Positions 20,628 to 63,296 are shown, counted from the stretch's first letter. The stretch: 64,000 nt of DNA from Mycobacteriales bacterium (GCA_035550055.1 DASZRO010000092.1:2637-66636), one strand, 5' to 3'. Translations and numbers: made by a program. Notes: generated from the letters alone by a model not told the origin.

Positions 20628-20809
20628 GCCGATCGGCACGACCCAAGCACCCAATCGCTGCTCCGTTCGGCGCAGTTGGGAGCGTGTGGCGCCGATCGTG
20701 TACCACGTTTTCAGCCTCTTCTCAGGCTGGGTCTCGCATTCGGCGCACATTTTGTTAGCCATAACGGCGTAGCAGGTAGTGGTTTAGGGGCCTTACACAA
20801 GGCTTTCAA

Positions 20810-23010: not shown

Positions 23011-23028
23011 GGACAGGACAGGATCCTC

Positions 23029-24525
23029 ATGCGAGCTTTCTATCTCCGGGACCTCAGGGACGATCGCGGCAGCATCATCCTTGCCCTGCTCGGCATCATC
23101 ATCCTCACGACGGTCGCCAGCGTCGGGCTGGCCGCCGCGGTGAACGGCCAGGGCCAGGCGCGCCACGACAACACGTTCACGCAGGCGCTGGACAACGCCG
23201 AGAGCGGCATCGACGCCATGGCCGCGACCATCAAGGGTGCAACTGCCAACGGGACGACCGACTACTACAACAGCCCGGGTGCCAGCGCACCACCGAAGCT
23301 GACCCTGTCCGGCGCGTACTCGGTCGTCGCCAAGAAGGTCAACCAGATCGGGCAGACCGGCAGCGCGTCGGCGTCGGTGTGGACCATCCAGTCGACCGGT
23401 ACGGCGGTGACCCAAGGACGCACGATCACCCGGGTCGTCACCGAGACGCTTACGGTCGCCCACACGTACAACGCCCCGCTGGAGGGCTCGAACGGCATCA
23501 ACCTCGGCTCGACCGGCAACAGCGTCAACAACTGCAGCGCGTGCGTCGGCGCCGGCGCCGTCAACGACCCGACGGTGATCTCGAAGGGGATCACCGTGCC
23601 GATCCTCGGCACACTCGGGTCCACGACGATCACCGACCCGCCCGGCGACAGCAGCCCCAACTCGACCCCGGGCGCCGCGGAGACCGGAGGACAGCTCGTG
23701 CTCCAGGGCGGTGACCTGCAGAACTTCGCCCAGGTCGCGCTAGACCAGGGCGGCACGTCCAACGGCTCGTGCAAGAGCACCTCCGACGTGTGCAACTCGA
23801 CCACCGTCGTCACCCAGGCCACCCAGGCGCCGGCGATCACGACTCCTGGTTGCCTGCCGGGCGCCATCGGTGCCGCGCTGAACGGAGTCGGCCTGTCGTT
23901 GCCGGACCCGCTCGGGGTGGTGCTCAACACCAACCTGGTGGCCAAGCTCGACGCTCAGCCGCCGATCGCTGACACGGTGTGCACCAACCTGCCGATCATC
24001 ATCCCGACCATTGGGACCACCCTGTCGTCGCTGCCGCTGATCGGGGGCCTGACCAACCTGACCGGCCTCGACGCCAGCCTCGACGCACCCATCGGCGCGG
24101 ACTGCCTGACCAACGGCGTGCAGTCGGTGCTGACCACGCTCGCCAGCGGCGCCAACCTCACCTGCACGATGGACCCGCCGCAGGACCTCGTCATCAACAA
24201 CGTGTCCAACCTCAACAACGACGGCACGTGCTCGGGTACCGGGTCGAGCGTGTACCTGGGAACCGGCACCACGGGCTCGCCGCCGGCGTACGTCTCGGCG
24301 CTGATCAACAACCCGTGCGGCAACTGCCAGATCACCGGCAACGTCGTGCTGTACGGCGCGCTGGAGTGCGCCACCATCACGGTGCCCCCGGGCTCGACGC
24401 TGACGGTGGAGTACCCGACCGACCAGGGCCTCACCGCAGGGCAGACCACGCACCTCGACACGGTGTCGAACTGGAACGAGTGCGAACCGGCGACGTCGGT
24501 CAGCGTCTGTCAACCGATCTCCTAG
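23029..24525 (+). CDS. PilX N-terminal domain-like pilus assembly protein (module B, gene 3)
   Basis: N-terminus MRAFYLRDLRDDRGSIILALLGIIILTTVASVGLAAAVNGQGQARHDNTFTQAL is near-colinear with 19320..20627. RBS-like aggacagg lies upstream. Confidence 0.65.
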   Translation: MRAFYLRDLRDDRGSIILALLGIIILTTVASVGLAAAVNGQGQARHDNTFTQALDNAESGIDAMAATIKGATANGTTDYYNSPGASAPPKLTLSGAYSVVAKKVNQIGQTGSASASVWTIQSTGTAVTQGRTITRVVTETLTVAHTYNAPLEGSNGINLGSTGNSVNNCSACVGAGAVNDPTVISKGITVPILGTLGSTTITDPPGDSSPNSTPGAAETGGQLVLQGGDLQNFAQVALDQGGTSNGSCKSTSDVCNSTTVVTQATQAPAITTPGCLPGAIGAALNGVGLSLPDPLGVVLNTNLVAKLDAQPPIADTVCTNLPIIIPTIGTTLSSLPLIGGLTNLTGLDASLDAPIGADCLTNGVQSVLTTLASGANLTCTMDPPQDLVINNVSNLNNDGTCSGTGSSVYLGTGTTGSPPAYVSALINNPCGNCQITGNVVLYGALECATITVPPGSTLTVEYPTDQGLTAGQTTHLDTVSNWNECEPATSVSVCQPIS

Positions 24526-41905: not shown

Positions 41906-42062
41906 CGCGTCGCGGGGTGACTAGCCCGGCCATGACTAATCCGGGCCATGCCAGGAACGGCTAAATGACAACGATCCGCTATTCAGATGGATACGGGTCC
42001 CGGCAATGCTCACCAAAGGCTCATCGCGCACCCATGCCGCGCGAAGCCGGAGGAGGCAGACG

Positions 42063-46427: not shown

Positions 46428-46501
46428 CGCGGGGTGGAGCAGCTCGGTAGCTCGCTGGGCTCATAACCCAGAGGTCACAGGTTCAAATCCTGTCCCCGCT
46501 A
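46428..46501 (+). tRNA. tRNA-Met (CAT), initiator-like (three G:C pairs in anticodon stem, C1xU72 unpaired); no encoded CCA
   Basis: The cloverleaf folds by hand: acceptor cgcgggg/ccccgct, D-arm gagc..gctc, anticodon stem ctggg/cccag with loop ctCATaa, T-arm acagg ttcaaat cctgt. Confidence 0.85.
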
Positions 46502-46519
46502 CTAGTAAAACCCCAGGTC

Positions 46520-46792: not shown

Positions 46793-47437
46793 ATGTCGAT
46801 TGGTCAGGCCGGCGCGCTGGAGAGCAAGTGCGAGGCGGGGTTGGTAGCCGAGACGATTGCCACATACGACCTCGGCGCCGATGTCTATGGACGACGGTTC
46901 GCGCAAGTCGACATGGGGGTGTATCTCGATCGCTTCGCCGAACTGATTCCGCTAGGCAGCATCACGCTAGATGCGGGCTGTGGTTCTGGTCGGGATCTTG
47001 CCTGGCTGAGAGCTCAGGGTATCCGTGCAGTTGGTCTCGATCGGTCCACGGGAATGCTCAGACTTGCTCGCCGCTCCGTGCAAGGCGGCTTGCTGGTTCG
47101 CGGTGACCTCCGCCGTCTTCCCTTCTCGGCGGCGACGTTCGGCGGTGTCTGGCAATGCGCTTCGCTGGTTCATCTGTCGCGGCCGCAGACGGTGATGGCT
47201 CTCGCTGAAGTCGAGCGCGTGCTGACGCCTGGTGGAGTCGTCTTCCTTTCGGTCGCGACGGGCGGCGAACCGGAATGGCGCGCTTCGTACGCCGGTCGAC
47301 GATGGTTCCATTACTACGACGGTGGCGATCTGAATGCGATGTTGCAAAGCGTCGGCTTGACAGTCCTAACGAGCGCGACGGAGCCGGGCGTGGTTCGCGG
47401 TTCGTGGGTAAACGTCTTCGCGCGGAAGGCCCGATAG
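46793..47437 (+). CDS. class I SAM-dependent methyltransferase
   Basis: Motif I LDAGCGSGRDLAWL, post-I GLDRS, and a Methyltransf_11/25-like layout. Confidence 0.65.
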   Translation: MSIGQAGALESKCEAGLVAETIATYDLGADVYGRRFAQVDMGVYLDRFAELIPLGSITLDAGCGSGRDLAWLRAQGIRAVGLDRSTGMLRLARRSVQGGLLVRGDLRRLPFSAATFGGVWQCASLVHLSRPQTVMALAEVERVLTPGGVVFLSVATGGEPEWRASYAGRRWFHYYDGGDLNAMLQSVGLTVLTSATEPGVVRGSWVNVFARKAR

Positions 47438-48019
47438 TTGATTTCGCTCGTCGCTGCCGATGCTGCCACGAAAGTCTGGGGTATCGATGTCACATTGCTC
47501 GCAGCAGGAGTGGCCGCTGTAGCTGCCATCGCAGCAGCGGGGCTCTCTTACCGCGGGAATCTCGCCACGAACCGAGCTGCTGAGGCTCAGCGGCAGCGTG
47601 ACTATCGGGTTCGCCAGCTCAACGAGCTGTACGGCCCGCTGTACATGAGGCGCCGACTCAGCCGACAACTCTGGAAACAGCTCCCCGGCGTGCCTGATGC
47701 TGAGCCCGGAGTCACCCAGTGGCACCTGATTGATCATGTCGAGGAGATCAAGACCGAGCAAGACGCTCACCGCAGGCAGGTTGTCGAAGAGATTCTTAAA
47801 ATCAATGACGAGCTAACTGGCCTAATCACGGGAAGTGCCGGCCTGCTGGTGGAGTTTCCTGCTCCGCAGAGTTTCGAGACCTTCCTTGTGCATGCGGCGA
47901 CCCTTCGGATGTTCTGGGAGCAGGGCCGGAACGCAACTAAGGCCGCCTACATCCCGTTTCCGGGATCCATCGATCGCGACATTGAGGATGCGATCACTCG
48001 TCTGCGCTCTCAGCTATGA
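47438..48019 (+). CDS. hypothetical membrane-anchored protein (island cargo)
   Basis: N-terminal TM (LLAAGVAAVAAIAAAGL). Locally lower GC. Start abuts the methyltransferase stop. Confidence 0.4.
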   Translation: MISLVAADAATKVWGIDVTLLAAGVAAVAAIAAAGLSYRGNLATNRAAEAQRQRDYRVRQLNELYGPLYMRRRLSRQLWKQLPGVPDAEPGVTQWHLIDHVEEIKTEQDAHRRQVVEEILKINDELTGLITGSAGLLVEFPAPQSFETFLVHAATLRMFWEQGRNATKAAYIPFPGSIDRDIEDAITRLRSQL

Positions 48020-48360
48020 ACTCGACGGATAGTGATGTGACGGACGAGAGCCCGGATGCCGATCTCGACCATGAGTTTCACGTGGAGTCGGAGGCGGCGA
48101 TCGCCGAGTGCCGGTCCTTGGGATACACACCGACCGTCTGGATTTCAATGCTGAGCCAGGTTGGCGCTGCGGAAGCCGCGCGCCGGCTTCTCGTGAGTGG
48201 TGACATTCAGAGTGGGTTTTCACGGCTGGTCGCGCTTGGCAGGCCGGAGCTGACGGTCGAGTGGGCTGCGCTCAACCCTAGGTGGGAGCCTCTATTCGAC
48301 GATCAGCACCGGGAAGCGGCGCGCTGGCGCTTGCGTCAGGCGGGAGTAGAACCGCGCTAA
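48016..48360 (+). CDS. hypothetical acidic protein (island cargo)
   Basis: ATGA overlap with the previous gene. No recognised motif. Confidence 0.4.
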   Translation: MNSTDSDVTDESPDADLDHEFHVESEAAIAECRSLGYTPTVWISMLSQVGAAEAARRLLVSGDIQSGFSRLVALGRPELTVEWAALNPRWEPLFDDQHREAARWRLRQAGVEPR

Positions 48361-48510: not shown

Positions 48511-48851
48511 CCGCCGGGGTTCATGTGGCGCATGGGCGGGATCCCAGCCATCGGCGGCGACACCTAAGGCGCGCAATGCTCGGACATACCCCCCCCCCGC
48601 CCGCACCCGTAGTCGAAGACGTGCTGGTCGCGCGAGATGAGCCCATCCCCGAGCGCCAGGGCGATTGGCCGGCACAGACTGCTCCTGGCGATAGCGGTCC
48701 GATGTCTCGGACGCCCGCCGCCGACCCCGGATGGGCTTTACCATCCCGAAGAGCGCCCTTTTCGGGCCCGTCGTCGAGTACGTCCGCATTGTTCACACCT
48801 GGAGGCCCGTCAAGTGTGCCGGCTCCGTCCGACCCGTATGTAGCTGCCGTC

Positions 48852-51051: not shown

Positions 51052-51474
51052 TTAGGCGAACTCAGAGAGCCGGTTGGTCAAGGTAAGAGTCGGCTCCGCC
51101 TCGCCAAGCAGCTTCTCGATGAGCCAAGCGAACCCGGCGTTGGCGTACTCGGTGGCGATGCGGATCACCTGGGCGGGGCTGTCGAGGACGCCCTTGCCTT
51201 CGACGGCGAGGGCCAGCAATTCGAGATGCGTGATGCGCCACGGGTCGGTCGCCAGGATTGTGCCGTCGTTGAACTTCACGGTCTTGTCTGGCAGGGGTGT
51301 GCGTTGGCGGAGTCGAACGCCGATGCCGAGCGCCACCCACCAGGCATCAACCTGACGGGCGAACGGCCGGGCGTCCTGCGCGGAACGTGAGACGAGGTCA
51401 TCCATGCGATCTCTGACGTCGCTCGCGATGAACAGGTCCTGGTTGGCATAGGGGTTCGCGACGGCGGCGGGCAT
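51052..51474 (-). CDS. hypothetical protein, last gene of phosphorothioation/defence operon (141 aa)
   Basis: Start overlaps the upstream ATPase stop by 1 nt (TGATG). No motif recognised. A DndE-like role is speculative. Confidence 0.45.
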   Translation of the reverse strand: MPAAVANPYANQDLFIASDVRDRMDDLVSRSAQDARPFARQVDAWWVALGIGVRLRQRTPLPDKTVKFNDGTILATDPWRITHLELLALAVEGKGVLDSPAQVIRIATEYANAGFAWLIEKLLGEAEPTLTLTNRLSEFA

Positions 51475-53618
51475 CAGACTGCAGCCTCCACGTCCCGGAA
51501 GTCGATTCCGTGCCGGTCGTCGTACTGACGGGCGCAGATTCGGCACGACTGGTGATGGTCACATGAGCAGGCGCGGACGACCGGATGGTCGATACCCCAG
51601 GGGTTGACGAGGTCGGTCGGGTAGTCCTTCGAACACGAGATGCTGACGATCTCGCCGGCACTGTTGTCAAGGAGCTCTTCGACGTCGCGAATCTCGGAGC
51701 GCGTGAGCAACAGCACCACCTGGAAGTCGGGGAGATCGGCGCCTGACGGCCTGGTGATGCGGTCGACCATCCGCGTTTTCACGCCGCCGGTGATCATCCC
51801 GAGTGGGGTGTCGATGATGCGTGGTGCTGTCGTGCCGGAGACCTCCATCAGCGCCCAGATGAACGAGACGGTCAGGGCACGCTGTGACGCACCGTTCAAC
51901 TCGAAGTCCGTATCCAGCGTCCGGCCGTCGTGCGTGTCGACGATGATGTTGTAGTTCTCATCGATGTGGACGCCTTCGAACACGCCGGCCTCGAACCCGG
52001 GGTGTGATCCGACAATGTCCATGAACAGTTCGTTCATGCGGTCGGACACACGACGAACGTAGTCGCCCTCGAGCATCTCTAGCGTGCCTGCGGCGAGCGC
52101 GGCAAGGTCTTGAGAGACGTCGCGTTTGACAACCAAATCGCCGCTCGCGCGCACCGCTTTCTCCGCTTCGCGCAGTTGTTGGTCCTGCACCTGTCGGCGG
52201 TCATCGAGTTGCTGAATTCTCGCCTGGATCCCGCCGAACTCGGTCCTGGCGTCGCCGATCTTTCGCTCGACGCCGGCGATCTTTCCGGTGAGGTCGCGGA
52301 CGCGGTCCTCGTCGATCTGCCTGCGCCGCTCCTTGAGTTGCTCGAGTTCCGTTGCCTTGGCTGCGAGCGAGTCCTTGGCGTCGGTGAACTCACTGAGCAA
52401 CTTCAGGCGTTGATCTCCGTACGCGTCGTTCTGCTCTTGTCGGGCGTCCTCGGCGGCGCGCGCCTGCCGAGCTGTGTGGAAGAGGCCTGTGAGTCGTTGC
52501 CTGCTGTCTGACTCGGCTCGTTGCTCGTCTCTGAGCTGCTCGACGCGATGACGGTGCCCGGAGCCTGGCTCCAGCGCTTCACCGCAGATGCATTCCTTCA
52601 ACTCGAGCCGGTCGGTGAGTACCTCGATAGAGGTTCCAGGAATGACGCGTCGGTCCACGAGGTCGGAGAGCAGCTTCATTCCCTCGTCGAGCTGGTCACT
52701 CATCAGTGTCCAGGAGATCGCCTCCGAACGCAGCGCCTCCCGCATGCGACCGAGCGCGCGGGCGCGCGCCTTCTCCAGAAGCTCGCGATCGCGCTCGGCC
52801 GTTTCGATGCGCGTGTTCAATTCATCGAGATCACCGAAACCGCGCAGCCCGTTGAGTTCCTTTTCCCAGTTGTTCTTCTGCTCGGTCATGTTGGCGAGTT
52901 GCTCTGTGACCTCGTCCGAACGAGCCCTCTCGTCGGCGAGTTCTGCCTCGGTTTCTTCGAGGGCAGTTTCGAGCTTGGACGTGTCCGAGCCGCCTGACCT
53001 TGAGACCTCAGCGCGGAGCTTCTTGAAGACGAATTCCAGGTCTTCCTTGGCTGTGCGTAGCGTGTCCAAGCTCAGCAACATCCTGATTGACCGATGGACT
53101 CGGTCTTGCCGCTGCTGGCTGGACACGCTCCCCGAGATGAAGGTCTGAACGTCGTCGCCGTTGGTGAAGAAGATGTCCTTCAACCGCAGCGGGATGAACT
53201 TTCCGATCAGCGCGTCGGCGCCCTCGATCTCGTCTTCGCCGGCAGACGTGATCTTGAACAGCCGAACGCGGTCACGCCCCCGGTCGACCTTGTCGCCGGC
53301 TTGCGGCGTCTCCGTCACGCTGCGAACAACCCGATAGCGCGTCGTGATGTCGTTGTCATCGGTGTGTTCGAACTCCACCATGACCGAGATCTCGACCGGC
53401 GTGCCGGCAGGTAGCGCCGTGGATGTCAAGCGACGGGCGGAGTCGGGGAGCCCTGGCATCCCGTAGAACGCCCAAAGCAGCGCGTACAAGATCGAGGTCT
53501 TGCCCGAGCCGTTCTCCGCCCGAATCACTGTTAGTGGCTTCTTCGGGTCGGTGGAGAAGTTGATCTTCACGTTCTCCAGCAGCTTGAAGTTCTCGATATG
53601 AGTGCGGATGAGGCGCAC
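51474..53618 (-). CDS. SMC/ABC-type ATPase (DndD/AAA_23-like N-terminus) with coiled coil and C-terminal Cys/His cluster
   Basis: MRLIRTHIENFKLLENVKINF...VIRAENGSGKTSILYALLWAFYG (Walker A). Long coiled-coil middle. Walker B/D-loop RIIDTPLGMI. C-terminal CSCDHHQSCRIC. GTG start overlaps the upstream ORF stop (TAGTG). Confidence 0.7.
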   Translation of the reverse strand: MRLIRTHIENFKLLENVKINFSTDPKKPLTVIRAENGSGKTSILYALLWAFYGMPGLPDSARRLTSTALPAGTPVEISVMVEFEHTDDNDITTRYRVVRSVTETPQAGDKVDRGRDRVRLFKITSAGEDEIEGADALIGKFIPLRLKDIFFTNGDDVQTFISGSVSSQQRQDRVHRSIRMLLSLDTLRTAKEDLEFVFKKLRAEVSRSGGSDTSKLETALEETEAELADERARSDEVTEQLANMTEQKNNWEKELNGLRGFGDLDELNTRIETAERDRELLEKARARALGRMREALRSEAISWTLMSDQLDEGMKLLSDLVDRRVIPGTSIEVLTDRLELKECICGEALEPGSGHRHRVEQLRDEQRAESDSRQRLTGLFHTARQARAAEDARQEQNDAYGDQRLKLLSEFTDAKDSLAAKATELEQLKERRRQIDEDRVRDLTGKIAGVERKIGDARTEFGGIQARIQQLDDRRQVQDQQLREAEKAVRASGDLVVKRDVSQDLAALAAGTLEMLEGDYVRRVSDRMNELFMDIVGSHPGFEAGVFEGVHIDENYNIIVDTHDGRTLDTDFELNGASQRALTVSFIWALMEVSGTTAPRIIDTPLGMITGGVKTRMVDRITRPSGADLPDFQVVLLLTRSEIRDVEELLDNSAGEIVSISCSKDYPTDLVNPWGIDHPVVRACSCDHHQSCRICARQYDDRHGIDFRDVEAAV

Positions 53619-53833
53619 TACGCCTCCCCGCCCTGCGCGGAGACCTTGCTGCCCAACGCCTCGACCAGCTTGGTGATCTTGTCCCGCCGCCCTTTCTCGG
53701 ACAGACCTTCCTGCTGCACGTTGATGGTGGCTACTAGCGCCTTCACGAGCTCGGCGCGGTATCCCGGGGTGCGTTCACTTATTAGCAGGACCTTCTCGCC
53801 GGCGACTTCTGCAATCCGGTTACCCGCCATCAC
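53618..53833 (-). CDS. small hypothetical protein (71 aa), translationally coupled
   Basis: Its stop overlaps the ATPase start by 1 nt. It sits 15 nt after the helicase stop. Confidence 0.4.
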   Translation of the reverse strand: MMAGNRIAEVAGEKVLLISERTPGYRAELVKALVATINVQQEGLSEKGRRDKITKLVEALGSKVSAQGGEA

Positions 53834-53847
53834 GTCTCCCCGTTAGG

Positions 53848-56007
53848 TCAGTCGTACTTCGACAGTATCTGGCGCGGTCCGTCGTTCGACCACTCGTTGA
53901 CGGCGAGGCTCGCGAACTCCTCAGCGCGACGCAGCTCGCCGCGCAGGATCGCCTTGCCGTGGTCCGAGCCTGGGTCCGGCGGGATGACGAGAAAGTCATG
54001 CAGGGTGGCGACTTCCTTGCCGGGCGCCTTGCGCAGGATGCGGCCCCTGCGCTGCACCCACTCTCGGTACACCGTGCTCGACGCTAGGAGATATGCCGTG
54101 TCGGTCTGCGGGATGTCGATGCCTTCGTCGAGGACCTTCATCGCAGTCAGCACCTGGTAGTCGCCCTGCCCGAAGCGGTCGAGCAGCTTCTTCGCATCCG
54201 CGCGCGAGGTCTCTGCGTTGGTGAACTGGTGGGAGATGATTCCGAGGCGCGATAGCAGCTCGTTGACTTCCTCAATCTGGCGAGTGCTGCCGAGGATCGT
54301 CGGCTTCGCCGAGGTGTAGATCAGCGTGCGCTGGACATTGCTCGCACCGTGCTCCTGCAACAGCAGTTCTAGCTGGTCGATCTTTCCGGATGCTTGCTCG
54401 AGCACCGCCCGTCGTTCGCGGAGCAGCCTCTCGATCTTCGGATTGGACACAACCGTGCGGCCGTCGTCTTCGAGGCGGAAGCCGGCGGCCTTCAATTCCT
54501 CGCACAGCTCGGTGTACTTGTTCATCTCGTCGTCGGCCAGCCGGACCTCGTGCAAGAAGTACCGGTAGCGGGTGAGGCAACCGGCCGCGATCGCGTCGGC
54601 GAGGCTGAAGTCGAAGACTGGCTGGCCGAAAAAGTCGAACAGCTTGTCGGTCCCGTCGGGGTCGTATTGGCGGACTGGCGTCGCGGACAGTCCAAGCCGG
54701 GTGTCGAATCGTTCCGGGAGATTGTTCAGGAACGTGGGTGTGCCGAGGTTGTGCATCTCGTCGCCGACGAGCATGGTCGCCGTATCTGCTGCTAGTTCGT
54801 CGATGAGCGCTCGCAGCGACTCGTCTTGTGCGAACAGTTGGTTAGTTGCAATGAGTACCTCGGTGCGTCGCTCGCCGCCGGCCAGGCCGGCGCGAACCTC
54901 TTCAAAGCGAACCCGGCGGCTATCTGGAGACCACTTGCTCGGCAGCAGGGGCTCTATCCCGAACTCTCGGAGATCGTCGGCCCACTGGGTCATGAGCGGT
55001 GTGGAGGGGACCAGGATCAGCAGCAGCATGGGGCCTTGATGACGCTCCTGCGTCTCCGTCGCGCAGATAAGTGCGGTTCGGGTCTTGCCTCCGCCGGTCG
55101 CGATCTCGAGGACCCCGCGGCCGTTCGCCTCGAAGTAGGCGTCGACGGCCCTGCCTTGGTGTCGGAACGGACCGGTCCGCCATTCCATCCCCGCCGGAAT
55201 TTGGAGCACGTGGGCGGGAGCGGAGCGGTAGTTCGGCGGCAGGTCCGGCTCTAGGCCGGCTTCGTGATCAGCCCGCCAGGCATCCCAGAAGTCCCGGACA
55301 GTGGGGACCTGCATCTCGTTGCCGTGACGCCCGGCGAATCGCAGGCCCTGCGGTGCCAGCAGCGTGAGCGAGTTGGGGTTTTCGTTGTTCCATTGGCGGT
55401 CCCATTGGCTCACCAGCAGCTCAACGCGCTTCGTCACGGACTGACCGTCCATCCAGGGGCGGTCGACGGTCATCTGCTCGCCGTTGACCAGTAGGCCGCG
55501 CGTTGTGGCGTTGCCGGAACCATGAACCGCGCCCCATGCGTTGCCGTCGTAGAACAGCCACATCTTCTTGTGGTACATCCCGCGTTGCATGAGCACGAAC
55601 CGCAGCTCGAGTCGGTCGCTCGCGACGAGGTAGGACAGGCAGTCGAGGGTGTGCCGTACGAGCGCGGACGGCGAGAGCTGTGCATCGGCGAGCAGACGCG
55701 TCGCTGTCTGCTCGATGACCCCCACCGGGTTGGACACGCCTCGGTCGATCGCGTCTCTGTCCTCGGCACTGATCTCAGGGCTCACGAGTAGTTCGAGCGG
55801 CTTAGAGCTGCTCGCAATGAACGAGGCAAGACCCGGCGCGATCTGCGCCAAGCAGTGCGAGCTGAAGAAGCCCGCGCCTATGCGGACGGAGGTGCTGACG
55901 TTCATGGCCGGCACCAGAACCTCGCCGACGAGATCATCGTCAGGGATTTCATAGACAGGAAGCGCGTCCGCGAGTGCTTCCGAAAGTCCGCCTGCTGCTT
56001 CGCTCAC
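53848..56007 (-). CDS. PLD-family nuclease domain fused to SF2 (DEAH/ResIII-type) helicase
   Basis: N-terminal HKKMWLFYD...GSGNAT (HxK..D..GSxN PLD motif). Helicase motifs I ATGGGKT, II VGDEMH, III SAT, and the C-terminal helicase domain (TAMKVLDEGIDIP, QRRGRILR). The GTG at 56007 overlaps the sspD-like stop (GTGA). An alternative start lies at 56025. Confidence 0.75.
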   Translation of the reverse strand: MSEAAGGLSEALADALPVYEIPDDDLVGEVLVPAMNVSTSVRIGAGFFSSHCLAQIAPGLASFIASSSKPLELLVSPEISAEDRDAIDRGVSNPVGVIEQTATRLLADAQLSPSALVRHTLDCLSYLVASDRLELRFVLMQRGMYHKKMWLFYDGNAWGAVHGSGNATTRGLLVNGEQMTVDRPWMDGQSVTKRVELLVSQWDRQWNNENPNSLTLLAPQGLRFAGRHGNEMQVPTVRDFWDAWRADHEAGLEPDLPPNYRSAPAHVLQIPAGMEWRTGPFRHQGRAVDAYFEANGRGVLEIATGGGKTRTALICATETQERHQGPMLLLILVPSTPLMTQWADDLREFGIEPLLPSKWSPDSRRVRFEEVRAGLAGGERRTEVLIATNQLFAQDESLRALIDELAADTATMLVGDEMHNLGTPTFLNNLPERFDTRLGLSATPVRQYDPDGTDKLFDFFGQPVFDFSLADAIAAGCLTRYRYFLHEVRLADDEMNKYTELCEELKAAGFRLEDDGRTVVSNPKIERLLRERRAVLEQASGKIDQLELLLQEHGASNVQRTLIYTSAKPTILGSTRQIEEVNELLSRLGIISHQFTNAETSRADAKKLLDRFGQGDYQVLTAMKVLDEGIDIPQTDTAYLLASSTVYREWVQRRGRILRKAPGKEVATLHDFLVIPPDPGSDHGKAILRGELRRAEEFASLAVNEWSNDGPRQILSKYD

Positions 56008-56840
56008 AGCGCGCAAACGGTGCACGCCGGCGTGTCGTCGTCGCTATCCAAAGCAGACGACAAGACCTCAATCAGTGGAATGTTGCGACGGGACTGGCTC
56101 GCACGCTCCATCGCGGCACGGTGTCGTTCGAGAATCTCGTCGCGGCGTGCGAGAAGTTCGCTCAGTGTCTCACCGCCTGACCAGGTGTAGGCCCGACTGC
56201 GCATGGCGCGATCACCGAAGTCGGCGTCGCCGTCGACGCCCGCGTCTTTGAGCATCTTCTGCTCGATGGCGACTGCTCGCTCCCACAGCTCCGGGTGACG
56301 GTCATGCAGCCCGACCCATTCGGCCTTTCGCTGGTAGAAGCAGAAGTAGCACCCGGATCGGGTTCGCCATTCGTAATACAACGGCAGCCCGATACCGGCG
56401 TCGGACAGGATGCGCATCACGCCGTCGTGGTCGATGTCGTCGTCGAGGAACGGAAAGACCGCGGTGATGTTGGGTTTGGTGGAGACATAGCCTTTGCGGT
56501 TGCGTTCATCGCTGCGGATCGCGATGTAGGACGTCGCGGGGGCGTCGCCGATCCACTCTTCCAAGGGTTTGATTTTCATCTGGCGGGTGCACCACCGCAT
56601 TTGCGGCGATGGCAGCGTCCCGCGGTACACCTCGAACCAGTGATCGAACCCGCGTTGAGCGTTGATGCGTTCGATCGGCTTGCCGAGCGCGACTTCGAGG
56701 CGGTTCAGGAACTCGTAAGTCTCCGGCAGTTCGGCGCCGGTATCGCAGAAGAAGTATTCCAGGTCGGGCACTCGGTCGCGCAGGTAGATCGCGAGTGCGC
56801 TGGAATCCTTCCCCCCGGAGATTCCACAGACGTGTCTCAC
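56004..56840 (-). CDS. PAPS-reductase-like PP-loop ATP pyrophosphatase (SspD/DndC-like)
   Basis: PP-loop CGISGGKDSSALA. Conserved Cys (CDTG, WCTRQMKIKP). ATGA overlap with the upstream ATPase gene. Confidence 0.75.
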   Translation of the reverse strand: MRHVCGISGGKDSSALAIYLRDRVPDLEYFFCDTGAELPETYEFLNRLEVALGKPIERINAQRGFDHWFEVYRGTLPSPQMRWCTRQMKIKPLEEWIGDAPATSYIAIRSDERNRKGYVSTKPNITAVFPFLDDDIDHDGVMRILSDAGIGLPLYYEWRTRSGCYFCFYQRKAEWVGLHDRHPELWERAVAIEQKMLKDAGVDGDADFGDRAMRSRAYTWSGGETLSELLARRDEILERHRAAMERASQSRRNIPLIEVLSSALDSDDDTPACTVCAL

Positions 56841-59800
56841 TTGCGCACCCTTCGTGCGTTCACGTTCTTCTTGGTGGCGTCGGTAGCTGGCGTGGCAGCG
56901 CTCCCTGCAGTGTGCGTTTGCCGGCTGGCGAGCAGTGCGAGCACGGTGTCTTCAGCCAGGCCGTCGGAGCCGAGGCGGGTCGCGACACGGGCGATCAACG
57001 CGTCGACTTCCGTGGCGATGGCGATCCGCTGATGCTCATCGACCCACACAACGCGGGCGCTCTCCGCTCCGTCGGGCAGCGTCACCGTGACGCGCATGGC
57101 TTCGAAGCCGTCCTGCTGGCTGGCGAGATGATCGTGGTTGAGAGCTTCGAGGCGGCGGAACGTGCCGCCGATCTCTCGCAGGGCACTGAAGAACCCGACG
57201 CGGTCGTCGTCGGTCCACGTCTGCGGCGGCAGTTCCGAGACGGTCATCGCGACGTACTCGGTCCAGTTGTTGTCGTCGTCGCCGGTTTCGGATGTGATCG
57301 CCGACAGGAAGGCCCGCATCCGCGGCTGGATGACCTTGCCGACGAGCAAGGCTCCTCGCTCGGCGAGGTTCGCCCGCAGACGCTCGCGTGGCACTCCGCA
57401 CACGTCGCTGATGCGGCCGCGGATTTCGTCGAGGAGTGCGGGATACGAGTTCTGGATTTCGGTGACCGCCGCCACGATCTGATCGGTCAGCGCTGTTAAT
57501 TGCCGCGGGGTGTAGGACGCGCCGGGATCTAGGGGCGGCAGATCGAACGCGGCGGGGAGAGCGCGGAACAGCAGCTCGTCAGGCTCGGTCGCGGCTTCGA
57601 GCGCCTGCCGGAATCGCAGCGTCGCGTCGCTCAAGTGTCGGGTCTTGCGGATGTGCTCGGGAGCGACTGCGACGACCTGCATCAGTTGCGCCACGACGGC
57701 GAGGACGCCGCCGCTGCGGAAGCCGGTGCCGGTGAGCGTTGCGGGCAACCGCGCGGGGAGCTTTTCAATGAGGGCTTGTCGTCCGCCGGAGCGGCTCGCG
57801 AAGTGCTTGATCTGGAAGTGCGCGGGATTGCGGACGAGTCGTTCGAGAACCTCGGGAGTAACAGCGGGCCGGAACGTGCCGTGTTCGTAGAGGGCGACCT
57901 GTTCACCGTGGACGAGCAACGCCGCGGTGAACAGGACCGGCGCGAGTCCGGCGCGCAAGCCGTACGGGGGAGCGGCGAGCCGGTCGAACAGCTCATCGAG
58001 CGCCACTCGTCCCGTCGTCGCCTGGTTGAACGTGCGCACGATCGCGTCCCACACTGGCTTGTACCCGGAGCGCGACGTGGGCTGCGCGAACCGCCACGAG
58101 TCGCCGTCCTGACGGTGCATGCCCGTGTCGTTGAGAATCGCCTCGTACATCGCGCGCTCGGGGCCGAAGCCCTCGATGCCGAGCCGCGGCGCCTCGGCGT
58201 CGCTGAGCATCGCCTCCAGCAGCTCCCGGCGCGCCTTGGCGGCCTGCGAGGACAGCTCATGACGGTTGATCAAGTCGTTGCGGACCCGTGGCGCCTTGGA
58301 GTAGACGTCGTCCGCTACCCACGACAGCGCGGCCGAGCCCGCTGGGGCGTCGATCACCGTTGACTGCCCGTTATCGCCGAGCAGGGACCAGCGATTGCCC
58401 TTCGCAGCGGGTCCGAAGACGGATTCGAAGGCGGCGTCGAGGGTCGTGACCGCTTCGGCGAGCCGCTCCTCGAGTTCCCGCTGAGCGACCCAGTCGATGC
58501 CAGCGACGGGATCGTTGCTGCTGAGCACGTCGCCGAGCGCAGCCGCCTCGATCGCGGCCTCCGTGACCGCGCCGACGTTGCGTGCGGTGACGATGACGAC
58601 AGGCTTGGCGCTTGCGCGGCTTTCGATGACGTCGCGCGGGAGCGGGCTGAGGGCATAGAGAACGCTTCCGTCGCAGCGGTCGGCCGACGTCGCGGGGGTG
58701 ACACGGCTTTGCCCGTCGACCCAGTGCCGGGTGAAGGTGCGCAGCGTCCCCGTCTCGTGACTGTGACGGCCGGCGACGAGCGGAGGCAGCGGACGAATGC
58801 GTTCGAGCAGCGTGGCGACGGACTCGCCGCGCAGCCGGCGCCGCGCCTGGTCGATGGCGTTCTTGAGGTCGAAGTCGCTGCCTTGCCAGACCCGGTACTC
58901 ATCGGCAAAGTCGCGGAAGGTGATCAGACCGAGCGCTTCGAGCTCTTTCAGGCGACGTTCCACCGCCTTGGCGTCTTGCGTTCCCGGCGCGCCGTCCGCA
59001 GCGGACCACGCGACGATCTGTTTCGACGCGCGCAGCGCGCCGCCCGACGCGACGAGGTTGAGCAGACCGACTGTGCGCACGACACGACGCTGCGCGGCGT
59101 CGAGCCCGTGGGCATCCCGGATTCGGGTGTCGACCTCCAGCCAGCGGCTCGCTGCGCTCGACACGGAGGCGAGGGTCGAAGCGGACTCGAGGAAGTAGCC
59201 GTAGAGGCGGTCGAGTCGCACGCACGGCAGCTCATCGTCGCCCGCGGGAAGGGCCGTGTCCTTCAACCAGGAGTGAATGCCTTTCGGCTCGCTGCCGGCC
59301 AGGAACGAAAACAGCGTGCGTTCGTTCTGTCCGTAGCGTTGGCACAGTTCAGGGAGCACGAGCAGCGCGAGAGGATGTAGGGGCCAAGTGCGTGCGAGAA
59401 CCGCGTCGTCCGCAAGGTCACCGAGCCCGGCAAGCCTCGCGCGTGCCGCCTGATCGGCGGCCCAGCGAGCCGTTCGCTGCGTGAACGCGCGGTTGGAAGA
59501 GTCGTTGAACGCCGCAGCGATCAGGGTCCGTGTTTGCGCCGGACTGTCAACGAACGGAACGTCTTCGAAGCGTCCCTGGATCTTCGCCCATTCGCGGCGA
59601 TGCGCAGCGGTCGCTCCTAGCGCGTAGTCGTCGAATGCCATGTGCTGCATCGTCACGAGGACGAGCGGAAGCGCCCGCTCGCCCCGAGTCCATTCCGCGA
59701 GGTCCTGCAGTAGGAACAGATCGGCGTCGCTGCGCGAGTCGGCGAATGCTTCGAGGTTCTTGCCGAACTCGTCGATGACAATCAGCACCGGCGCTGCCTC

Positions 59801-60382
59801 GGTCATCGTCTGCAAGCACGCCTTGATCTCACGCGCCTCGATGTGACGGGGCGTGCCTGCCGTCGCTTGCCGCTGGAGTTGGTCGAGGCGTCGACCCAAG
59901 CCGGCGAACTCCGCGCGCTGCGTTCGCGCCGGGAACCGTTCGATGCCGGAGCGCAAGGCTCGCACAACCGTCAGAGCGACCGGCTCGCGTTGTGCGGTGA
60001 CGAGGCAGCGGATGAAGCCGTCCCGGTCCGCATTCATGTCGCGGCGCGCGGCCACGAGCAGGCGGGCCGTGTCCGGGTCGGCGTTGAAGAGCAGGTCGTC
60101 AGCGGCAACGCGTGCGCGATCGCCGGTAGGTCCGAGCAACGCGTCGATGAGGATGGCGAGGCTGGACTTGCCAGAACCGTAGGGCCCGGTCACGGAAAGC
60201 GCGCGTTCGACGTCGTTGCGGCTCAAGCTGACGGCGAGCCGGTGGACGGTGTCGATGGCACGCGCGACCGGGAGATAGCTTTCGATCGACTCGCTGCCCG
60301 CGTCACGCTCGACGTTGATCGACCGTGCGAACCGTGGCTTCGGCGCGCGGAAGTCCAGCATCGAATGCTTGGCGGGGGTCAT
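56837..60382 (-). CDS. large P-loop ATPase, BrxC/PglY-like (DUF499-type), SspC-like
   Basis: 1181 aa. Walker A VTGPYGSGKSSLA near the N-terminus and Walker B LIVIDEFGKN. The size and layout match BREX BrxC-type proteins as I recall them. ATGA overlap with the DUF4007 gene stop (start at 60382, inside the 60589 ORF). Confidence 0.65.
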   Translation of the reverse strand: MTPAKHSMLDFRAPKPRFARSINVERDAGSESIESYLPVARAIDTVHRLAVSLSRNDVERALSVTGPYGSGKSSLAILIDALLGPTGDRARVAADDLLFNADPDTARLLVAARRDMNADRDGFIRCLVTAQREPVALTVVRALRSGIERFPARTQRAEFAGLGRRLDQLQRQATAGTPRHIEAREIKACLQTMTEAAPVLIVIDEFGKNLEAFADSRSDADLFLLQDLAEWTRGERALPLVLVTMQHMAFDDYALGATAAHRREWAKIQGRFEDVPFVDSPAQTRTLIAAAFNDSSNRAFTQRTARWAADQAARARLAGLGDLADDAVLARTWPLHPLALLVLPELCQRYGQNERTLFSFLAGSEPKGIHSWLKDTALPAGDDELPCVRLDRLYGYFLESASTLASVSSAASRWLEVDTRIRDAHGLDAAQRRVVRTVGLLNLVASGGALRASKQIVAWSAADGAPGTQDAKAVERRLKELEALGLITFRDFADEYRVWQGSDFDLKNAIDQARRRLRGESVATLLERIRPLPPLVAGRHSHETGTLRTFTRHWVDGQSRVTPATSADRCDGSVLYALSPLPRDVIESRASAKPVVIVTARNVGAVTEAAIEAAALGDVLSSNDPVAGIDWVAQRELEERLAEAVTTLDAAFESVFGPAAKGNRWSLLGDNGQSTVIDAPAGSAALSWVADDVYSKAPRVRNDLINRHELSSQAAKARRELLEAMLSDAEAPRLGIEGFGPERAMYEAILNDTGMHRQDGDSWRFAQPTSRSGYKPVWDAIVRTFNQATTGRVALDELFDRLAAPPYGLRAGLAPVLFTAALLVHGEQVALYEHGTFRPAVTPEVLERLVRNPAHFQIKHFASRSGGRQALIEKLPARLPATLTGTGFRSGGVLAVVAQLMQVVAVAPEHIRKTRHLSDATLRFRQALEAATEPDELLFRALPAAFDLPPLDPGASYTPRQLTALTDQIVAAVTEIQNSYPALLDEIRGRISDVCGVPRERLRANLAERGALLVGKVIQPRMRAFLSAITSETGDDDNNWTEYVAMTVSELPPQTWTDDDRVGFFSALREIGGTFRRLEALNHDHLASQQDGFEAMRVTVTLPDGAESARVVWVDEHQRIAIATEVDALIARVATRLGSDGLAEDTVLALLASRQTHTAGSAATPATDATKKNVNARRVRK

Positions 60383-61419
60383 CCTGCCACCTTCGCCTTG
60401 CCGCGGCTCGAACTCGCCGTGACGATGCTCGCGGGTTCGTCGCCGGCGGTTCCCGCGATTGGCGTCTCCGCCGGTTGCGCGTCCGGGTTTACGTGGAGGT
60501 AGTGCGCGTGCAGAACCTTGGTCGCGATCGCGGCCGGATCGCCGTCGAACGTCAGCTGGGTGACGCCAGTCGTCGTGATGAGCCGGCACCGGGGGCCGCT
60601 GAGGGGCAGCGCCTGTTCGATGTGTTCAATCAGGGACTGTTCGCTGATTCGGAATGCACGGCCCGGTCCGCCAGGCTCGGTCGCCAGTCGCGACATCGTC
60701 ACGGTCCGCGCGGTCGTGTCGGTTCGGGCGACGAAATCCAACGCGGCGAAGAGCACGACCGCGGACGGCAGGCCGGGTTTGCGCGACGAGACGAATCGGT
60801 AGCGGCGCCTGCCCGTGCCGGGGCGCAGCAGGCCGAGTTCGCGGAACGGGCAATCAACCAGGTCATCGGAGGTTGGCCGGCCACCTTCGGCTTCGGCCGT
60901 ATACATCCGGAGCAGGCAGTCGATGTCCTTCTTCAACGAGCCGGAGTGCACGTCGTCCCAGTCGCTGACGCCATCGACGAATTCGGAGACGAACGCTCGC
61001 AGATCGTCGTCGCCGAAGTCCAGCGCAGGAAATTCGTGGAACGTCACCCACCATGCGGGCGCGAGTGACGGCGGCGCCAACAGCCACCAGTGGAGCAGCC
61101 ACAGCGTGGCCCGGTCCTCGCAATACGGATCCCAGCCGTCGCCACCGAACAGCGTGACGCCGATGCGCGAGGGCACAGTTTTGGGCATGCGCAGGCGTTC
61201 TGGATCGGCTTCCTGGGTCAGCAGCTTGGTCGCGAGACCCCAGAACCTGATCGAGCGCACCATGTTCTTGCCAACACCGAGTTGGACAACGGCGTCGTCT
61301 CGCGTGAACATGCGCGGGTCGGCGGTCGCGCCGTCCACGGCCTTCTTCATCCACCCATACCTAGGGTGAAATGATTCGTGCCGCGCGAAAGCGGGAGTCG
61401 CGCTTGCCTCGAGTCTCAT
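60379..61419 (-). CDS. DUF4007 family protein (SspB-like)
   Basis: N-terminal FARHESFHPRYGWMKKA, the signature I associate with DUF4007/SspB. Its start overlaps the cysteine desulfurase stop by 4 nt. The true start is an internal Met of the 61575 ORF. Confidence 0.65.
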   Translation of the reverse strand: MRLEASATPAFARHESFHPRYGWMKKAVDGATADPRMFTRDDAVVQLGVGKNMVRSIRFWGLATKLLTQEADPERLRMPKTVPSRIGVTLFGGDGWDPYCEDRATLWLLHWWLLAPPSLAPAWWVTFHEFPALDFGDDDLRAFVSEFVDGVSDWDDVHSGSLKKDIDCLLRMYTAEAEGGRPTSDDLVDCPFRELGLLRPGTGRRRYRFVSSRKPGLPSAVVLFAALDFVARTDTTARTVTMSRLATEPGGPGRAFRISEQSLIEHIEQALPLSGPRCRLITTTGVTQLTFDGDPAAIATKVLHAHYLHVNPDAQPAETPIAGTAGDEPASIVTASSSRGKAKVAG

Positions 61420-62633
61420 GCCAACGCGCCGGCGGGCGTCGTCGCGGCCGTGGCATCGGTCGGGATGTCCGGGTGCGTGAGATCCCGGACCCGGTTCACC
61501 GCGGCCGCGAGGAGCGCCGCCGCCTCGGCGATCTCGGATCGCGTGGTCGGTCGGCCGACGCTGATGCGCACGCACTCGGATGCGGCTTCGTCGTCAGCGA
61601 GCATCGCGCGCAGGACATGCGACGGTCCGGGAACGCTCGAGGTGCACGCGCTGCCCGACGACAGCGCGAGCGTCGGCGCGTTAGCTATAACGGCGTCCGC
61701 GTCGGCTCCGGCGAATCGCCAGTTCCGGGTGTTGGCGAGTCGCGGTGGGCCGGCTGCTCCGGATGACGGCGAGACGATGTCGATCGGCGCGCATCCGGCG
61801 ATCACGAGTTTGTCGTGCAGATGGTCGATCAGCTCAGCGAAATGCTGGACGTCGGCCGCCAGCCGCGTCCTCGCGATGGCGGCAGCAGCGCCCATGCCCA
61901 CGATGGCGGGGACGTTGAGCGTGCCCGGTCGCAGTCCGCGCTCGTGGCCGCCTCCGTGCATCAGCGGCTCGATGCGGATGCCGCGGCGGATATACAGCGC
62001 GCCGACGCCCTTGGGGCCATACATCTTGTGACCGCTGAAGGACGCCATATCGACGTCGAGCGCGTCGAGGTCGATCGCGAGCCTGCCTGCCGCCTGCGTC
62101 GCGTCGGTGTGGGTGATCGCACCCGCCTGGTGGGCGAGTTCGTTGATGCGGGCGAGTGGCTGGATGACCCCGGATTCGTTGTTGGCGAGCATCACGGTCA
62201 CGAGACCAATGTCGTCCCCGAGTGTCGCCGCGAGTTGATCAAGGTCGAGCAGCCCGTCCGGGGCGACCGGAAGAAGCTCGATCTTGTAACCGTGATCTTG
62301 GGCCCAGGTCAGCGGTTCCAGCACCGCCTTGTGCTCCGTCAGGGGAGCAATGATCCGACGCCGATTGTCCGGCAATGCGGAGAGCGCGCCGAGAAGCGCA
62401 AGGTTGTTCGCCTCGGTGGCACCTGACGTGAAGACGATCTCGCCCGGGCGCGCACCGACGAGCTCAGCCAGCCGTGCGCGCGCGTCGTCGACCGCGGCGT
62501 GCGCCATTCGGCCCGGTAGATGATGACTCGCCGGGTTCGCGAACGCGCTGGTCAGCCACGGCTGCATGACGTCCAGCACAGCGCCGTCGATGGGCGTGCT
62601 GGCGTTGTAGTCGAGGTAGATCGCGTCACGCAC
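61416..62633 (-). CDS. cysteine desulfurase (class V aminotransferase; SspA/DndA/IscS-like)
   Basis: AIYLDYNASTP, TSGATEANNLAL, PLP-Lys motif SFSGHKMYGPKGVGALY, catalytic Cys loop SSGSACTS. GTG start near 62633. Confidence 0.8.
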   Translation of the reverse strand: MRDAIYLDYNASTPIDGAVLDVMQPWLTSAFANPASHHLPGRMAHAAVDDARARLAELVGARPGEIVFTSGATEANNLALLGALSALPDNRRRIIAPLTEHKAVLEPLTWAQDHGYKIELLPVAPDGLLDLDQLAATLGDDIGLVTVMLANNESGVIQPLARINELAHQAGAITHTDATQAAGRLAIDLDALDVDMASFSGHKMYGPKGVGALYIRRGIRIEPLMHGGGHERGLRPGTLNVPAIVGMGAAAAIARTRLAADVQHFAELIDHLHDKLVIAGCAPIDIVSPSSGAAGPPRLANTRNWRFAGADADAVIANAPTLALSSGSACTSSVPGPSHVLRAMLADDEAASECVRISVGRPTTRSEIAEAAALLAAAVNRVRDLTHPDIPTDATAATTPAGALA

Positions 62634-62908
62634 GGAGATGGCCCCAGTTCGGTGTCGTGTGGTGTCCACCGTATGGCGTGGATGCGACAGAAAGCACCCC
62701 CGACATGCGACCTGGGGATGCGGGTCGGTCAGCCGAGTAGGCACAAGATCACGGACCTCCTTCATCTGCCGGCGATGAGCGGGCGGCACGGCAGACCTGC
62801 TCTGCCAGTCCTGCAATTACGCGTGGCAGGCCTCGGACGACGGCACGCCCGGCACAAGCTGGGAAGCCAGAGAGTCCGCTGGAGCTTCTCGCCTCGAGCG
62901 GGAGTCCG

Positions 62909-63079
62909 CTATGTCCGATGTCGCTCACGGGGCTCCGCGCCAAGCAGCGCCGTGACTTGGGCCAGCGGGATTAGTAGTCGCCGGCCTATCCGGACTGCAG
63001 GTAGTTCACCACTACGCACCGCCCGGAATGCGGAGTTGCGCGAGATGCCGAGCACTTGCGCGGCCTCCTCGACGGTCAT
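62909..63079 (-). CDS. excisionase-family helix-turn-helix DNA-binding protein
   Basis: MTVEEAAQVLGISRNSAFRAVRSGELPAVRIGRRLLIP matches the Xis/MerR-type HTH_17 pattern. Confidence 0.55.
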   Translation of the reverse strand: MTVEEAAQVLGISRNSAFRAVRSGELPAVRIGRRLLIPLAQVTALLGAEPRERHRT

Positions 63080-63296
63080 CGTTAGACGCTCAGGGCCGGC
63101 CATGCGCGGTCACTCCTTACGTATGAGTCAGTCGTCGACGAGGAATCACAGTTGGCTGACGCCCCCGGGGCGTCCCCCAGGAGGTCCCGTACCGATTGCG
63201 TGACCGCGGCCGTGTCCATCGGAACAGTGGGGCGCTCGAGCAGACCCTGCGCCTCCGACGCCGGCGTCGCGAGTGCGGTGCCAGCGGTGGGCGCGC

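Follow-up and report, generated by a model that had tools for sequence, protein, structure and literature searches.

Which effector accompanies a single-strand DNA phosphorothioate (PT) writer of the Ssp type when neither SspE nor SspFGH is encoded beside it? This question is raised by a gene cluster in a 64,000-nucleotide (nt) stretch of the genome of a Mycobacteriales bacterium (GCA_035550055.1, DASZRO010000092.1:2637-66636), here called the window, meaning the whole stretch at its full length. A preliminary description of the window had reported eight consecutive minus-strand genes from 62633 to 51052, of which the first four were taken as SspABCD and the other four as an uncharacterised, perhaps undescribed effector module. 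We found that two known modules, the writer SspABCD and the effector PbeABCD, are combined here in a new way, together with an unreported and apparently Pbe-associated gene that lies just outside this interval. The parts are known, and since writers and effectors are expected to mix and match in the PT field, the surprise is moderate; the combination recurs widely, and we consider it probable that the two modules are functionally coupled in a PT-based defence island.

A scan for open reading frames (ORFs) returned the eight co-directional ORFs between 62633 and 51052, and an independent gene call on the identical public contig gave the same eight genes; the eight-gene observation is confirmed, with small corrections of start codons (Table 1). 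The sspA/sspB and sspB/sspC pairs overlap as ATGA, sspC/sspD as GTGA, pbeB/pbeC as TAGTG and pbeC/pbeD as TGATG, and the TGA stop of sspD directly abuts the GTG start of pbeA at 56007. With the earlier pbeA start at 56025 the gene would run 22 nt into sspD, and homologues favour 56007 (719 aa). For SspB, the 346-aa start proposed earlier is better than the 323-aa gene call, because the DUF4007 and SspB profiles begin at residues 10-11. That the genes follow one another without intergenic gaps holds nearly throughout, as overlaps or abutting ends; taken strictly it fails between pbeA and pbeB, where the sole gap of the row measures ~14 nt and contains a GGGGAG ribosome-binding site. With stop/start overlaps of 4 nt and 1 nt running through both modules, and with sspD and pbeA abutting, the eight genes probably form one transcription unit. 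The six large proteins (SspA, SspB, SspC, SspD, PbeA and PbeC) match their own profiles end to end, far beyond chance.

By PADLOC profiles (E values of 1e-100 to 0), Pfam matches and motifs, the first four genes are SspABCD, as had been proposed. SspA matches the PADLOC profiles of SspA (1e-130) and DndA (1e-127) and Pfam Aminotran_5 (7e-70), and carries the pyridoxal phosphate (PLP)-lysine motif SGHK at residue 200 and the catalytic-cysteine motif SSGSAC at residue 325. SspB matches DUF4007 over residues 11-307 (1.4e-82) and PADLOC SspB (9.5e-100), with RYGW at residue 20. SspD is matched over its full length by PADLOC SspD (9e-108), and Pfam PAPS_reduct matches it at 3.6e-11; SGGKDS stands at residue 8, CYFC at 164 and CTVC at 273, and C164, C167 and C276 are invariant in 20 homologues. 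For SspC, the PADLOC SspC profile gave E=0 and 1185 bits over positions 2-1102 of its 1104, the BrxC profile gave 2.4e-130, and Walker A (GPYGSGKS) and Walker B (LIVIDE) motifs were found at residues 66 and 200. The preliminary description had expected both DUF4007 and DUF499 matches, and only the first was obtained: no Pfam model, DUF499 included, matches SspC at E <= 0.01, so that its assignment rests on the SspC-specific and BrxC profiles, which leave no doubt about it. The other motifs named earlier, an HKD motif with helicase motifs in the 719-aa protein and a cysteine cluster in the 714-aa protein, are likewise present. We regard the gene identities as a whole as close to certain. SspABCD is known from the literature to write single-strand PT.

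The four downstream genes, by profiles, motifs and fold, are PbeABCD, which is the known CxC-ABC-ATPase/DndE system, and this match to a described set removes the novelty that had been claimed for the effector. PbeABCD was defined in haloarchaea, where it partners DndCDEA (Xiong et al. 2019, PMC6459918), and in the work of Rakesh, Aravind and Krishnan 2024 (PMC10853773), the set is re-annotated as a pair of CxC ABC-ATPase and DndE with an HKD-superfamily 2 (SF2) helicase and a small protein. PbeA of the window is 100% identical to a protein of a Mycobacteriales metagenome-assembled genome (MAG) at NCBI. It matches PADLOC PbeA over residues 25-712 (5e-180), TIGR04095 'DNA phosphorothioation system restriction enzyme' (2e-108) and Pfam ResIII, DEAD and Helicase_C. 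In 24 homologues (56-100% identity) the HKD residues H146, K148, G163, S164 and N166 are invariant, as are helicase motifs I, II, III and VI (GGGKT 305-309, DE.H 416-419, SAT 441-443 and QRRGR 652-656). That the HKD residues are invariant speaks for a genuine nuclease activity, as Rakesh et al. also argue.

PbeC is matched by PADLOC PbeC (1e-49), PADLOC DndD (4.5e-37) and TIGR03185 (1e-31). The CxC pair C343/C345, the Walker A lysine, the Walker B aspartate and a C-terminal CxC-x5-CxxC cluster (C684/C686/C692/C695) are invariant in 77/77 homologues; no mention of this C-terminal cluster (51474-53618, residues 684-695) was found in the literature consulted. PbeD matches TIGR04062. A PDB sequence search with the PbeD profile gave only noise (E >= 0.57), so that a fold comparison was needed, and this identified a DndE fold. 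The DndD/DndE-like pair, named in the preliminary description as a fallback, was thus the right idea for PbeC and PbeD. PbeB fits in size (66 aa in PMC6459918) and in its position between pbeA and pbeC, where its homologues also occur in 31 loci, at 32-62% identity and with a common ER.PGYR motif. It had no HMM match: PADLOC gave nothing at E <= 10 for the 71-aa and 141-aa proteins, and Pfam matched neither PbeB, PbeD nor three homologues with a precomputed PF27807 tag, a model apparently absent from those searched. Every structural feature of PbeABCD is present, and what is lacking from its founding description is a neighbouring dndCDEA. The neighbouring writer is SspABCD, no DndD/DndE pair exists besides PbeC/PbeD, and DndC profiles match just a 23-residue stretch.

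Other effectors were considered for the locus. SspE, with its DUF262 (DndB-like) NTPase and DUF1524/HNH nuclease, has no match among the nine proteins (the eight and the neighbour described below), the surrounding gene calls or the flanking genes scanned, and no SspFGH or DndFGH profile matches any of the nine, although SspF was readily detected in other loci; the earlier remark that SspE and SspFGH do not fit was therefore correct. Lamassu and Septu (LmuB, PtuA) had also been suggested and do not hold, since the best matches of the 714-aa ATPase are PbeC and DndD and PtuA matches only its Walker A stretch (8.3e-6, residues 5-47). As for BREX type 4, the gene calls include no PglZ or BrxL, and BrxP matches just residues 5-94 of SspD.

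The linkage of Ssp with Pbe genes is not accidental, as it recurs over about nine phyla, in several gene orders and as an identical operon on a plasmid. A PbeA alignment was searched against one genome per species (185,579 species), the best 80 of 449 relatives were kept with 10-kb flanks, and these loci were searched with the proteins of the window; linkage was counted where at least two of SspB, SspC and SspD lie within 10 kb of PbeA. It was found in 60 of the 80 best PbeA loci, and these 60 belong to Actinomycetota, Chloroflexota, Thermodesulfobacteriota and 'Deltaproteobacteria', Gemmatimonadota, Acidobacteriota, Planctomycetota, Gammaproteobacteria, Latescibacteria and Binatia. The ssp genes lie upstream on the same strand in 35 loci, upstream and divergent in 8 and downstream in 17, with at least four relative orders. 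On plasmid CP099618.1 of the cultured Sphingomonadaceae isolate OTU29MARTA1, an integrase adjoins the identical, colinear operon of eight genes, which bear no more than the annotations cysteine desulfurase, DUF4007, hypothetical, PAPS reductase, DEAD/DEAH helicase, hypothetical, AAA ATPase and hypothetical. Further cultured carriers are Microtetraspora fusca NBRC 13915, Nonomuraea terrae CH32 and Streptantibioticus ferralitis JCM 14344. Divergence was measured crudely, as identity to the window's proteins, and compared by Spearman correlation; PbeA and PbeC co-vary (0.91), as do SspB and SspC (0.89) and SspC and SspD (0.81).

Viewed from the writer, Pbe is one of several alternative partners. 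Among 80 metagenome loci sampled around SspD relatives, Pbe lies near sspD in 7 of the 17 informative loci whose SspD is at least 61% identical to that of the window, and in 1 of 31 more distant ones. Other sets found 3' of sspD include a DndB/DUF262-like protein, SspF, a ZorD/DpdE-like SNF2 helicase and a second SspB paralogue. In 5-12 of the loci a triad of an MzaB-like ATPase (~616 aa), a helicase (~535 aa) and a DrmC-like phospholipase D (PLD) protein (~317 aa) occupies this place, and it may be a further undescribed Ssp partner. This picture agrees with the report that sspE or sspFGH is missing from 83.9% of sspBCD clusters, whose authors predicted further partners (Wang 2021, PMC8092258).

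Several side observations were made in these loci. Sponge-associated MAGs (Poriferisodalis, Poriferisocius, Spongiisociaceae, Aldehydirespiratoraceae and Caldilineaceae) are the source of many Ssp-Pbe loci, among them L023, L028, L033, L044, L047, L070, L071, L079 and L080. The helicase of the triad (L084, L087, L088, L092, L093, L108, L128, L143 and L161) resembles the helicase half of PbeA without the PLD part. The second SspB paralogue is shorter (~274 aa) and was seen in 11 metagenome loci (L107, L115, L116, L124, L125, L130, L132, L136, L146, L157 and L158). Two Pbe loci without Ssp (L031:3033-7581 and L067:2235-7637) carry the PADLOC candidate genes PDC-M33A/B/C. Among their products is a 550-aa protein, one half of which is an SspD-like PAPS reductase, and the set may be another sulfur writer, or a writer of another modification, paired with Pbe. 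On the Halococcus dombrowskii plasmid NZ_CP095007.1 (L166), a transposase splits an archaeal Pbe row between pbeB and pbeC, and the row has DNA methyltransferases, not a PT writer, on its flanks. A match on an Arthrobacter plasmid (H3) belongs to a record without annotation.

Convergent with pbeD, and with its stop codon 1 nt from that of pbeD, lies a ninth gene, labelled 'sigma factor-like helix-turn-helix DNA-binding protein' by NCBI. Its product has 744 aa when started at 48816 and 732 aa from the NCBI start at 48852, and the longest ORF begins at 48525. The only Pfam match is Sigma70_r4 (3.8e-6); RNA_pol_A_CTD (PF03118) is precomputed in 14 of the 38 homologues listed and not in the window's own protein (P0121). 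In an AlphaFold2 model (predicted local distance difference test score, pLDDT, 88.6), an N-terminal helical part and a sigma region 4 helix-turn-helix (HTH) are accompanied by some four units of winged-helix-like type and by a domain rich in beta structure at residues ~564-663. Foldseek searches with this model returned sigma region 4, tandem winged-helix arrays (SelB, UFL1) and plant B3 DNA-binding domains, and found no enzyme; the B3 match has probability 1.0 and a target-normalised template modelling (TM) score of 0.5-0.55 for the predicted structure. From the secondary structure this match would fall at residues 564-663, and the model suggests a protein built from DNA-binding domains alone, namely HTH, winged-helix and B3-like.

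A homologue of the ninth gene is present in 48 of the 80 PbeA loci. In 31 loci it lies 5' of pbeA on the same strand, mostly between sspD and pbeA, and in 14 it is convergent after pbeD as in the window; 8 loci with a homologue have Pbe without Ssp. Its divergence follows that of PbeC (rho 0.83) and PbeA (0.74), not that of Ssp (~0). A homologue with 28% identity likewise faces a PbeD/PbeC/PbeB/PbeA-like row in convergent orientation, and one with 26% (P0156) is solitary. A profile of the protein searched against 1.84 billion representatives gave 1,409 clusters (at 50% identity) at E <= 1e-30, so that the sigma-like family is large. On this distribution we propose the gene as a fifth Pbe-associated component, whose product is most likely a DNA-recognition or regulatory subunit of Pbe. 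The available texts of Rakesh 2024 (PMC10853773) and Xiong 2019 (PMC6459918) contain no mention of such a sigma-like component.

If the two modules are coupled, as we think probable, SspA would draw sulfur from cysteine and the PP-loop enzyme SspD would transfer it, SspB (DUF4007) would bind and nick DNA, and the BrxC-like ATPase SspC would supply the energy, so that, at short motifs, one strand of the host DNA receives sulfur in its backbone. The mark expected of SspABCD is single-strand PT at a CpsCA-type motif in host DNA. PbeC, a zinc-hook CxC ABC ATPase, and PbeD, with its DndE fold, would form a DNA-scanning pair; PbeA would be the motor-nuclease that translocates and then cuts or stalls, and PbeB a small regulator restraining the complex. 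The Ssp mark would license and guide this effector, which, by analogy with DndCDEA-PbeABCD of haloarchaea, would need host PT to act, spare PT-marked DNA and stop the replication of unmarked invading DNA. The sigma-like protein may give sequence or mark recognition, or regulate the system. In the archaeal system, defence depends on host PT and requires all four genes, PT-modified virus escapes, and viral DNA replication is blocked (PMC6459918, PMC9239217). For the window, the gene identities, the intact catalytic motifs, the translational coupling, the recurrent linkage and the co-variation of the ninth gene with Pbe are seen in the sequences themselves; we infer the production of PT, its motif, the reading of the Ssp mark by Pbe and the function of the ninth gene. 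That the locus represents a third, undescribed class of Ssp-dependent defence, in which Pbe, first defined with double-strand Dnd marks, reads single-strand PT from an unrelated writer and the sigma-like protein is the missing DNA/PT reader or infection sensor, is a more tentative suggestion, which we hold to be somewhat less probable than its opposite.

Several points weigh against coupling, and most of them would suit two independent systems sharing one island and one transcript, with SspABCD as an orphan epigenetic writer and the Pbe/CxC system standing alone with its own discrimination of self from foreign DNA. Pbe occurs without any PT writer in 20 of the 80 loci, and Pbe modules are found with methylases, also on plasmids, with PDC-M33 genes, or alone (also PMC10853773); Ssp writers, for their part, pair with many different downstream gene sets. 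Divergence of Pbe proteins is uncorrelated with that of Ssp proteins (rho -0.18 to 0.09), so the modules appear to be exchanged freely, as units. This fits a mix-and-match relation of writer and effector, and Dnd and Pbe are likewise uncorrelated (rho 0.107; Xiong 2019, PMC6459918); by itself, however, it is no proof of functional coupling, and free exchange would also be expected of independent neighbours in a defence island. Rakesh et al. (PMC10853773) doubt that Pbe is a dedicated PT-restriction partner and hold CxC systems to be decoupled from PT modules. PbeD is a cognate of DndE, yet the Ssp writer uses SspB, so that PbeCD, with its DndE-type scanner, would have to read a mark written by the unrelated SspB/SspC machinery. 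Among the Ssp-Pbe loci, 20 (Streptomyces, Nonomuraea and others) lack the ninth gene, as does the operon of CP099618.1, so that it is a frequent accessory, not universal or everywhere essential. The case for coupling itself draws on sequence and analogy. We nevertheless consider two independent systems unlikely, because the linkage persists in 60 of 80 loci over about nine phyla despite reshuffled gene order, the stop/start contacts continue across the module boundary, and Dnd-linked PbeABCD is experimentally PT-dependent (PMC6459918).

A still less probable reading makes Pbe an abortive-infection effector, in which PbeA cuts host DNA once a phage factor removes or modifies PbeB, and PT or the sigma-like protein only tune the response. 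The invariant HKD residues of PbeA would suit such a role, as would the sigma region 4 of the sigma-like protein and the alpha C-terminal domain (alpha-CTD)-like domain in its family. Surfaces of sigma region 4 and alpha-CTD are known targets of phage take-over factors, so that a role of the sigma-like protein as a decoy sensor is conceivable. The archaeal system showed no viral DNA cleavage (PMC6459918), and Rakesh 2024 (PMC10853773) proposes exactly this role for PbeB. Escape of PT-modified virus from the archaeal system (PMC6459918), however, points to discrimination on the invader's DNA, and the moderate conservation of PbeB is not that of a fast-evolving disordered bait.

PbeC, PbeD and the sigma-like protein could instead belong to the writing side, as a DndDE-like targeting pair that steers SspA and SspD to further motifs and leaves PbeA as the sole restriction component. 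DndD and DndE belong to the Dnd writer, and PbeC and PbeD form their sister pair (PMC10853773); the junctions suggest that their genes are co-transcribed with those of SspA and SspD. Deletion of archaeal pbeC or pbeD, however, ended defence although PT modification was still expressed (PMC6459918), and PbeC and PbeD always accompany PbeA, not Ssp, which makes this arrangement very improbable. A decayed, non-functional remnant of a defence island, which the origin from a MAG and the missing promoter consensus might suggest, is hardly credible, given that all nine ORFs are full length against profiles or homologues, that every catalytic motif is intact, and that scans for a sigma-70 consensus are not informative in actinobacteria.

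Functional coupling of SspABCD and PbeABCD, if correct, would bear on two open points of the PT field. The conserved pairing covers part of two gaps, the sspBCD clusters without a known partner (PMC8092258) and the pbeAC pairs without a Dnd writer nearby (320 of 553, PMC6459918). If Pbe works with two unrelated writers, making PT on one or both strands, its test of self against non-self must read the sulfur mark or its absence and could not rely on a writer-specific complex. The disputed mechanism of Pbe (replication block, cleavage or suicide) would become directly testable, and the sigma-like protein, as a concrete reader candidate, could explain how Pbe distinguishes self from foreign DNA. 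What makes the locus valuable is that it offers a testable approach to the sensing of PT by Pbe.

The cluster probably lies on a horizontally acquired island at a tRNA-Met gene of this actinobacterial genome (Table 1). The GC content of the window is ~0.70; at the tRNA it drops from ~0.71 to 0.63-0.68, and GC at third codon positions (GC3) from ~0.9 to 0.78-0.81, which, together with the HTH_17 gene, points to an integrative element. To the left of the tRNA are housekeeping genes for a histidine kinase, a UPF0182 protein, a subtilase and a GGDEF-EAL protein. No repeat of the tRNA 3' end was found within the 64-kb window, and it looks as though the right end of the island and its integrase lie beyond it. 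Upstream of the eight genes there is just one sizeable gap, the intergenic region 5' of sspA; it contains neither repeats nor a sigma-70 consensus. A scan for promoters and terminators is uninformative, with 0 promoters and 2 terminator-like sites against higher numbers in shuffles. Between the tRNA and the sigma-like gene, three overlapping plus-strand genes (46793-48360) encode a 214-aa class I S-adenosylmethionine (SAM) methyltransferase and 193-aa and 114-aa ORFs of no family. Homologues of the methyltransferase and the 193-aa ORF occur near one Ssp-Pbe locus (L001), and the methyltransferase also in L018 and L041; these three genes and the Xis-like gene were rejected as further components, with homologues in just 1-3 of 160 loci. 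Elsewhere in the window, at 18000-24000 and 40000-42000, GC falls to 0.67, with strongly negative GC skew and positive AT skew.

Table 1 Features of the Ssp-Pbe locus and its surroundings, in coordinates of the window
Feature	Coordinates	Strand	Basis or context
tRNA-Met; probable integration site and left island border	46428..46502	+	ARAGORN
Sigma-factor-like multi-domain DNA-binding protein, 744 aa	48816..51050	+	convergent with pbeD
pbeD: DndE-fold DNA-binding protein, 140 aa; alternative TTG start 51477	51052..51474	-	
pbeC: CxC-type ABC ATPase with coiled coil, sister of DndD, 714 aa	51474..53618	-	
pbeB: 70-aa protein; alternative GTG start 53833	53618..53830	-	size and position
pbeA: HKD (PLD-type) nuclease-SF2 helicase fusion, 719 aa; alternative GTG 56025	53848..56007	-	
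sspD: PAPS-reductase-like PP-loop sulfurtransferase, 278 aa	56004..56840	-	profiles and SGGKDS
sspC: BrxC-like ORC/Cdc6-type AAA+ ATPase, 1181 aa	56837..60382	-	PADLOC profile and Walker motifs
sspB: DUF4007 DNA-binding/nicking subunit, 346 aa	60379..61419	-	profiles and RYGW
sspA: class-V PLP cysteine desulfurase, 405 aa	61416..62633	-	profiles and motifs
275-nt intergenic region 5' of sspA; presumed operon promoter (inferred)	62634..62908	-	
HTH_17 (excisionase/MerR-type) 64-aa gene; mobile-element marker	62909..63103	-	Pfam, gene call of identical contig

A December 2025 review of PT systems lists DndBCDFGH, DndCDEA-PbeABCD, TdpABC, SspBCDE and SspBCDFGH only, and PbeABCD has so far been described just beside DndCDEA or methylases. 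No description of an Ssp-Pbe system was found in the literature searched in full text; Xiong 2020 (Nat Microbiol) and Krishnan 2020 (NAR), which lie outside that coverage, might show one. The closest relative is DndCDEA-PbeABCD of Haloterrigena jeotgali A29 (PMC6459918). It has the same four-gene effector in the same order and in similar sizes (PbeA with PLD/HKD and helicase parts, PbeB of ~70 aa, a DndD-like ATPase PbeC and PbeD of ~140-150 aa), likewise adjoining a PT writer with a cysteine desulfurase and a PAPS-reductase-like enzyme. The writer there is DndCDE (DndD/DndE, double-strand PT), whereas here it is SspABCD (DUF4007 and BrxC-like AAA+, single-strand PT); the present host is an actinobacterium, there is an extra sigma-like gene, and the system of the window is known from sequence alone. 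The CxC/DndE conflict systems (Krishnan 2020; PMC10853773) have a core, all four parts of which are present here, linked to Dnd genes, cytosine methylases and MTaX1, and the available text of these papers mentions neither Ssp genes nor a sigma-like multi-winged-helix protein. They differ further in that PbeC here and in its 77 relatives also has the C-terminal cysteine cluster. BREX type 4 (BrxC, BrxP, DUF4007, PglZ and BrxL; PMC12914056, PMC12839542) shares a BrxC-like ATPase, PAPS reductase, DUF4007 and a cysteine desulfurase with the locus. Here, in contrast, DUF4007 and PAPS reductase are separate proteins, and the SspC and SspD profiles score far above those of BrxC and BrxP. In SspABCD-SspE, reportedly described by Xiong in 2020, the effector SspE is said to be a DUF262/DUF1524 protein. 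The SspABCD-SspE and SspABCD-SspFGH systems (PMC8092258) share with the window the PT writer, the order sspA-B-C-D and an effector directly downstream, which here is neither of the two. With respect to the ninth protein, its predicted B3-like domain in company with the HKD nuclease PbeA finds a parallel in the restriction enzymes BfiI and EcoRII. In BfiI a PLD/HKD nuclease is joined to a B3-like DNA-binding pseudobarrel, whereas in the window the nuclease and B3-like domains are placed on separate proteins.

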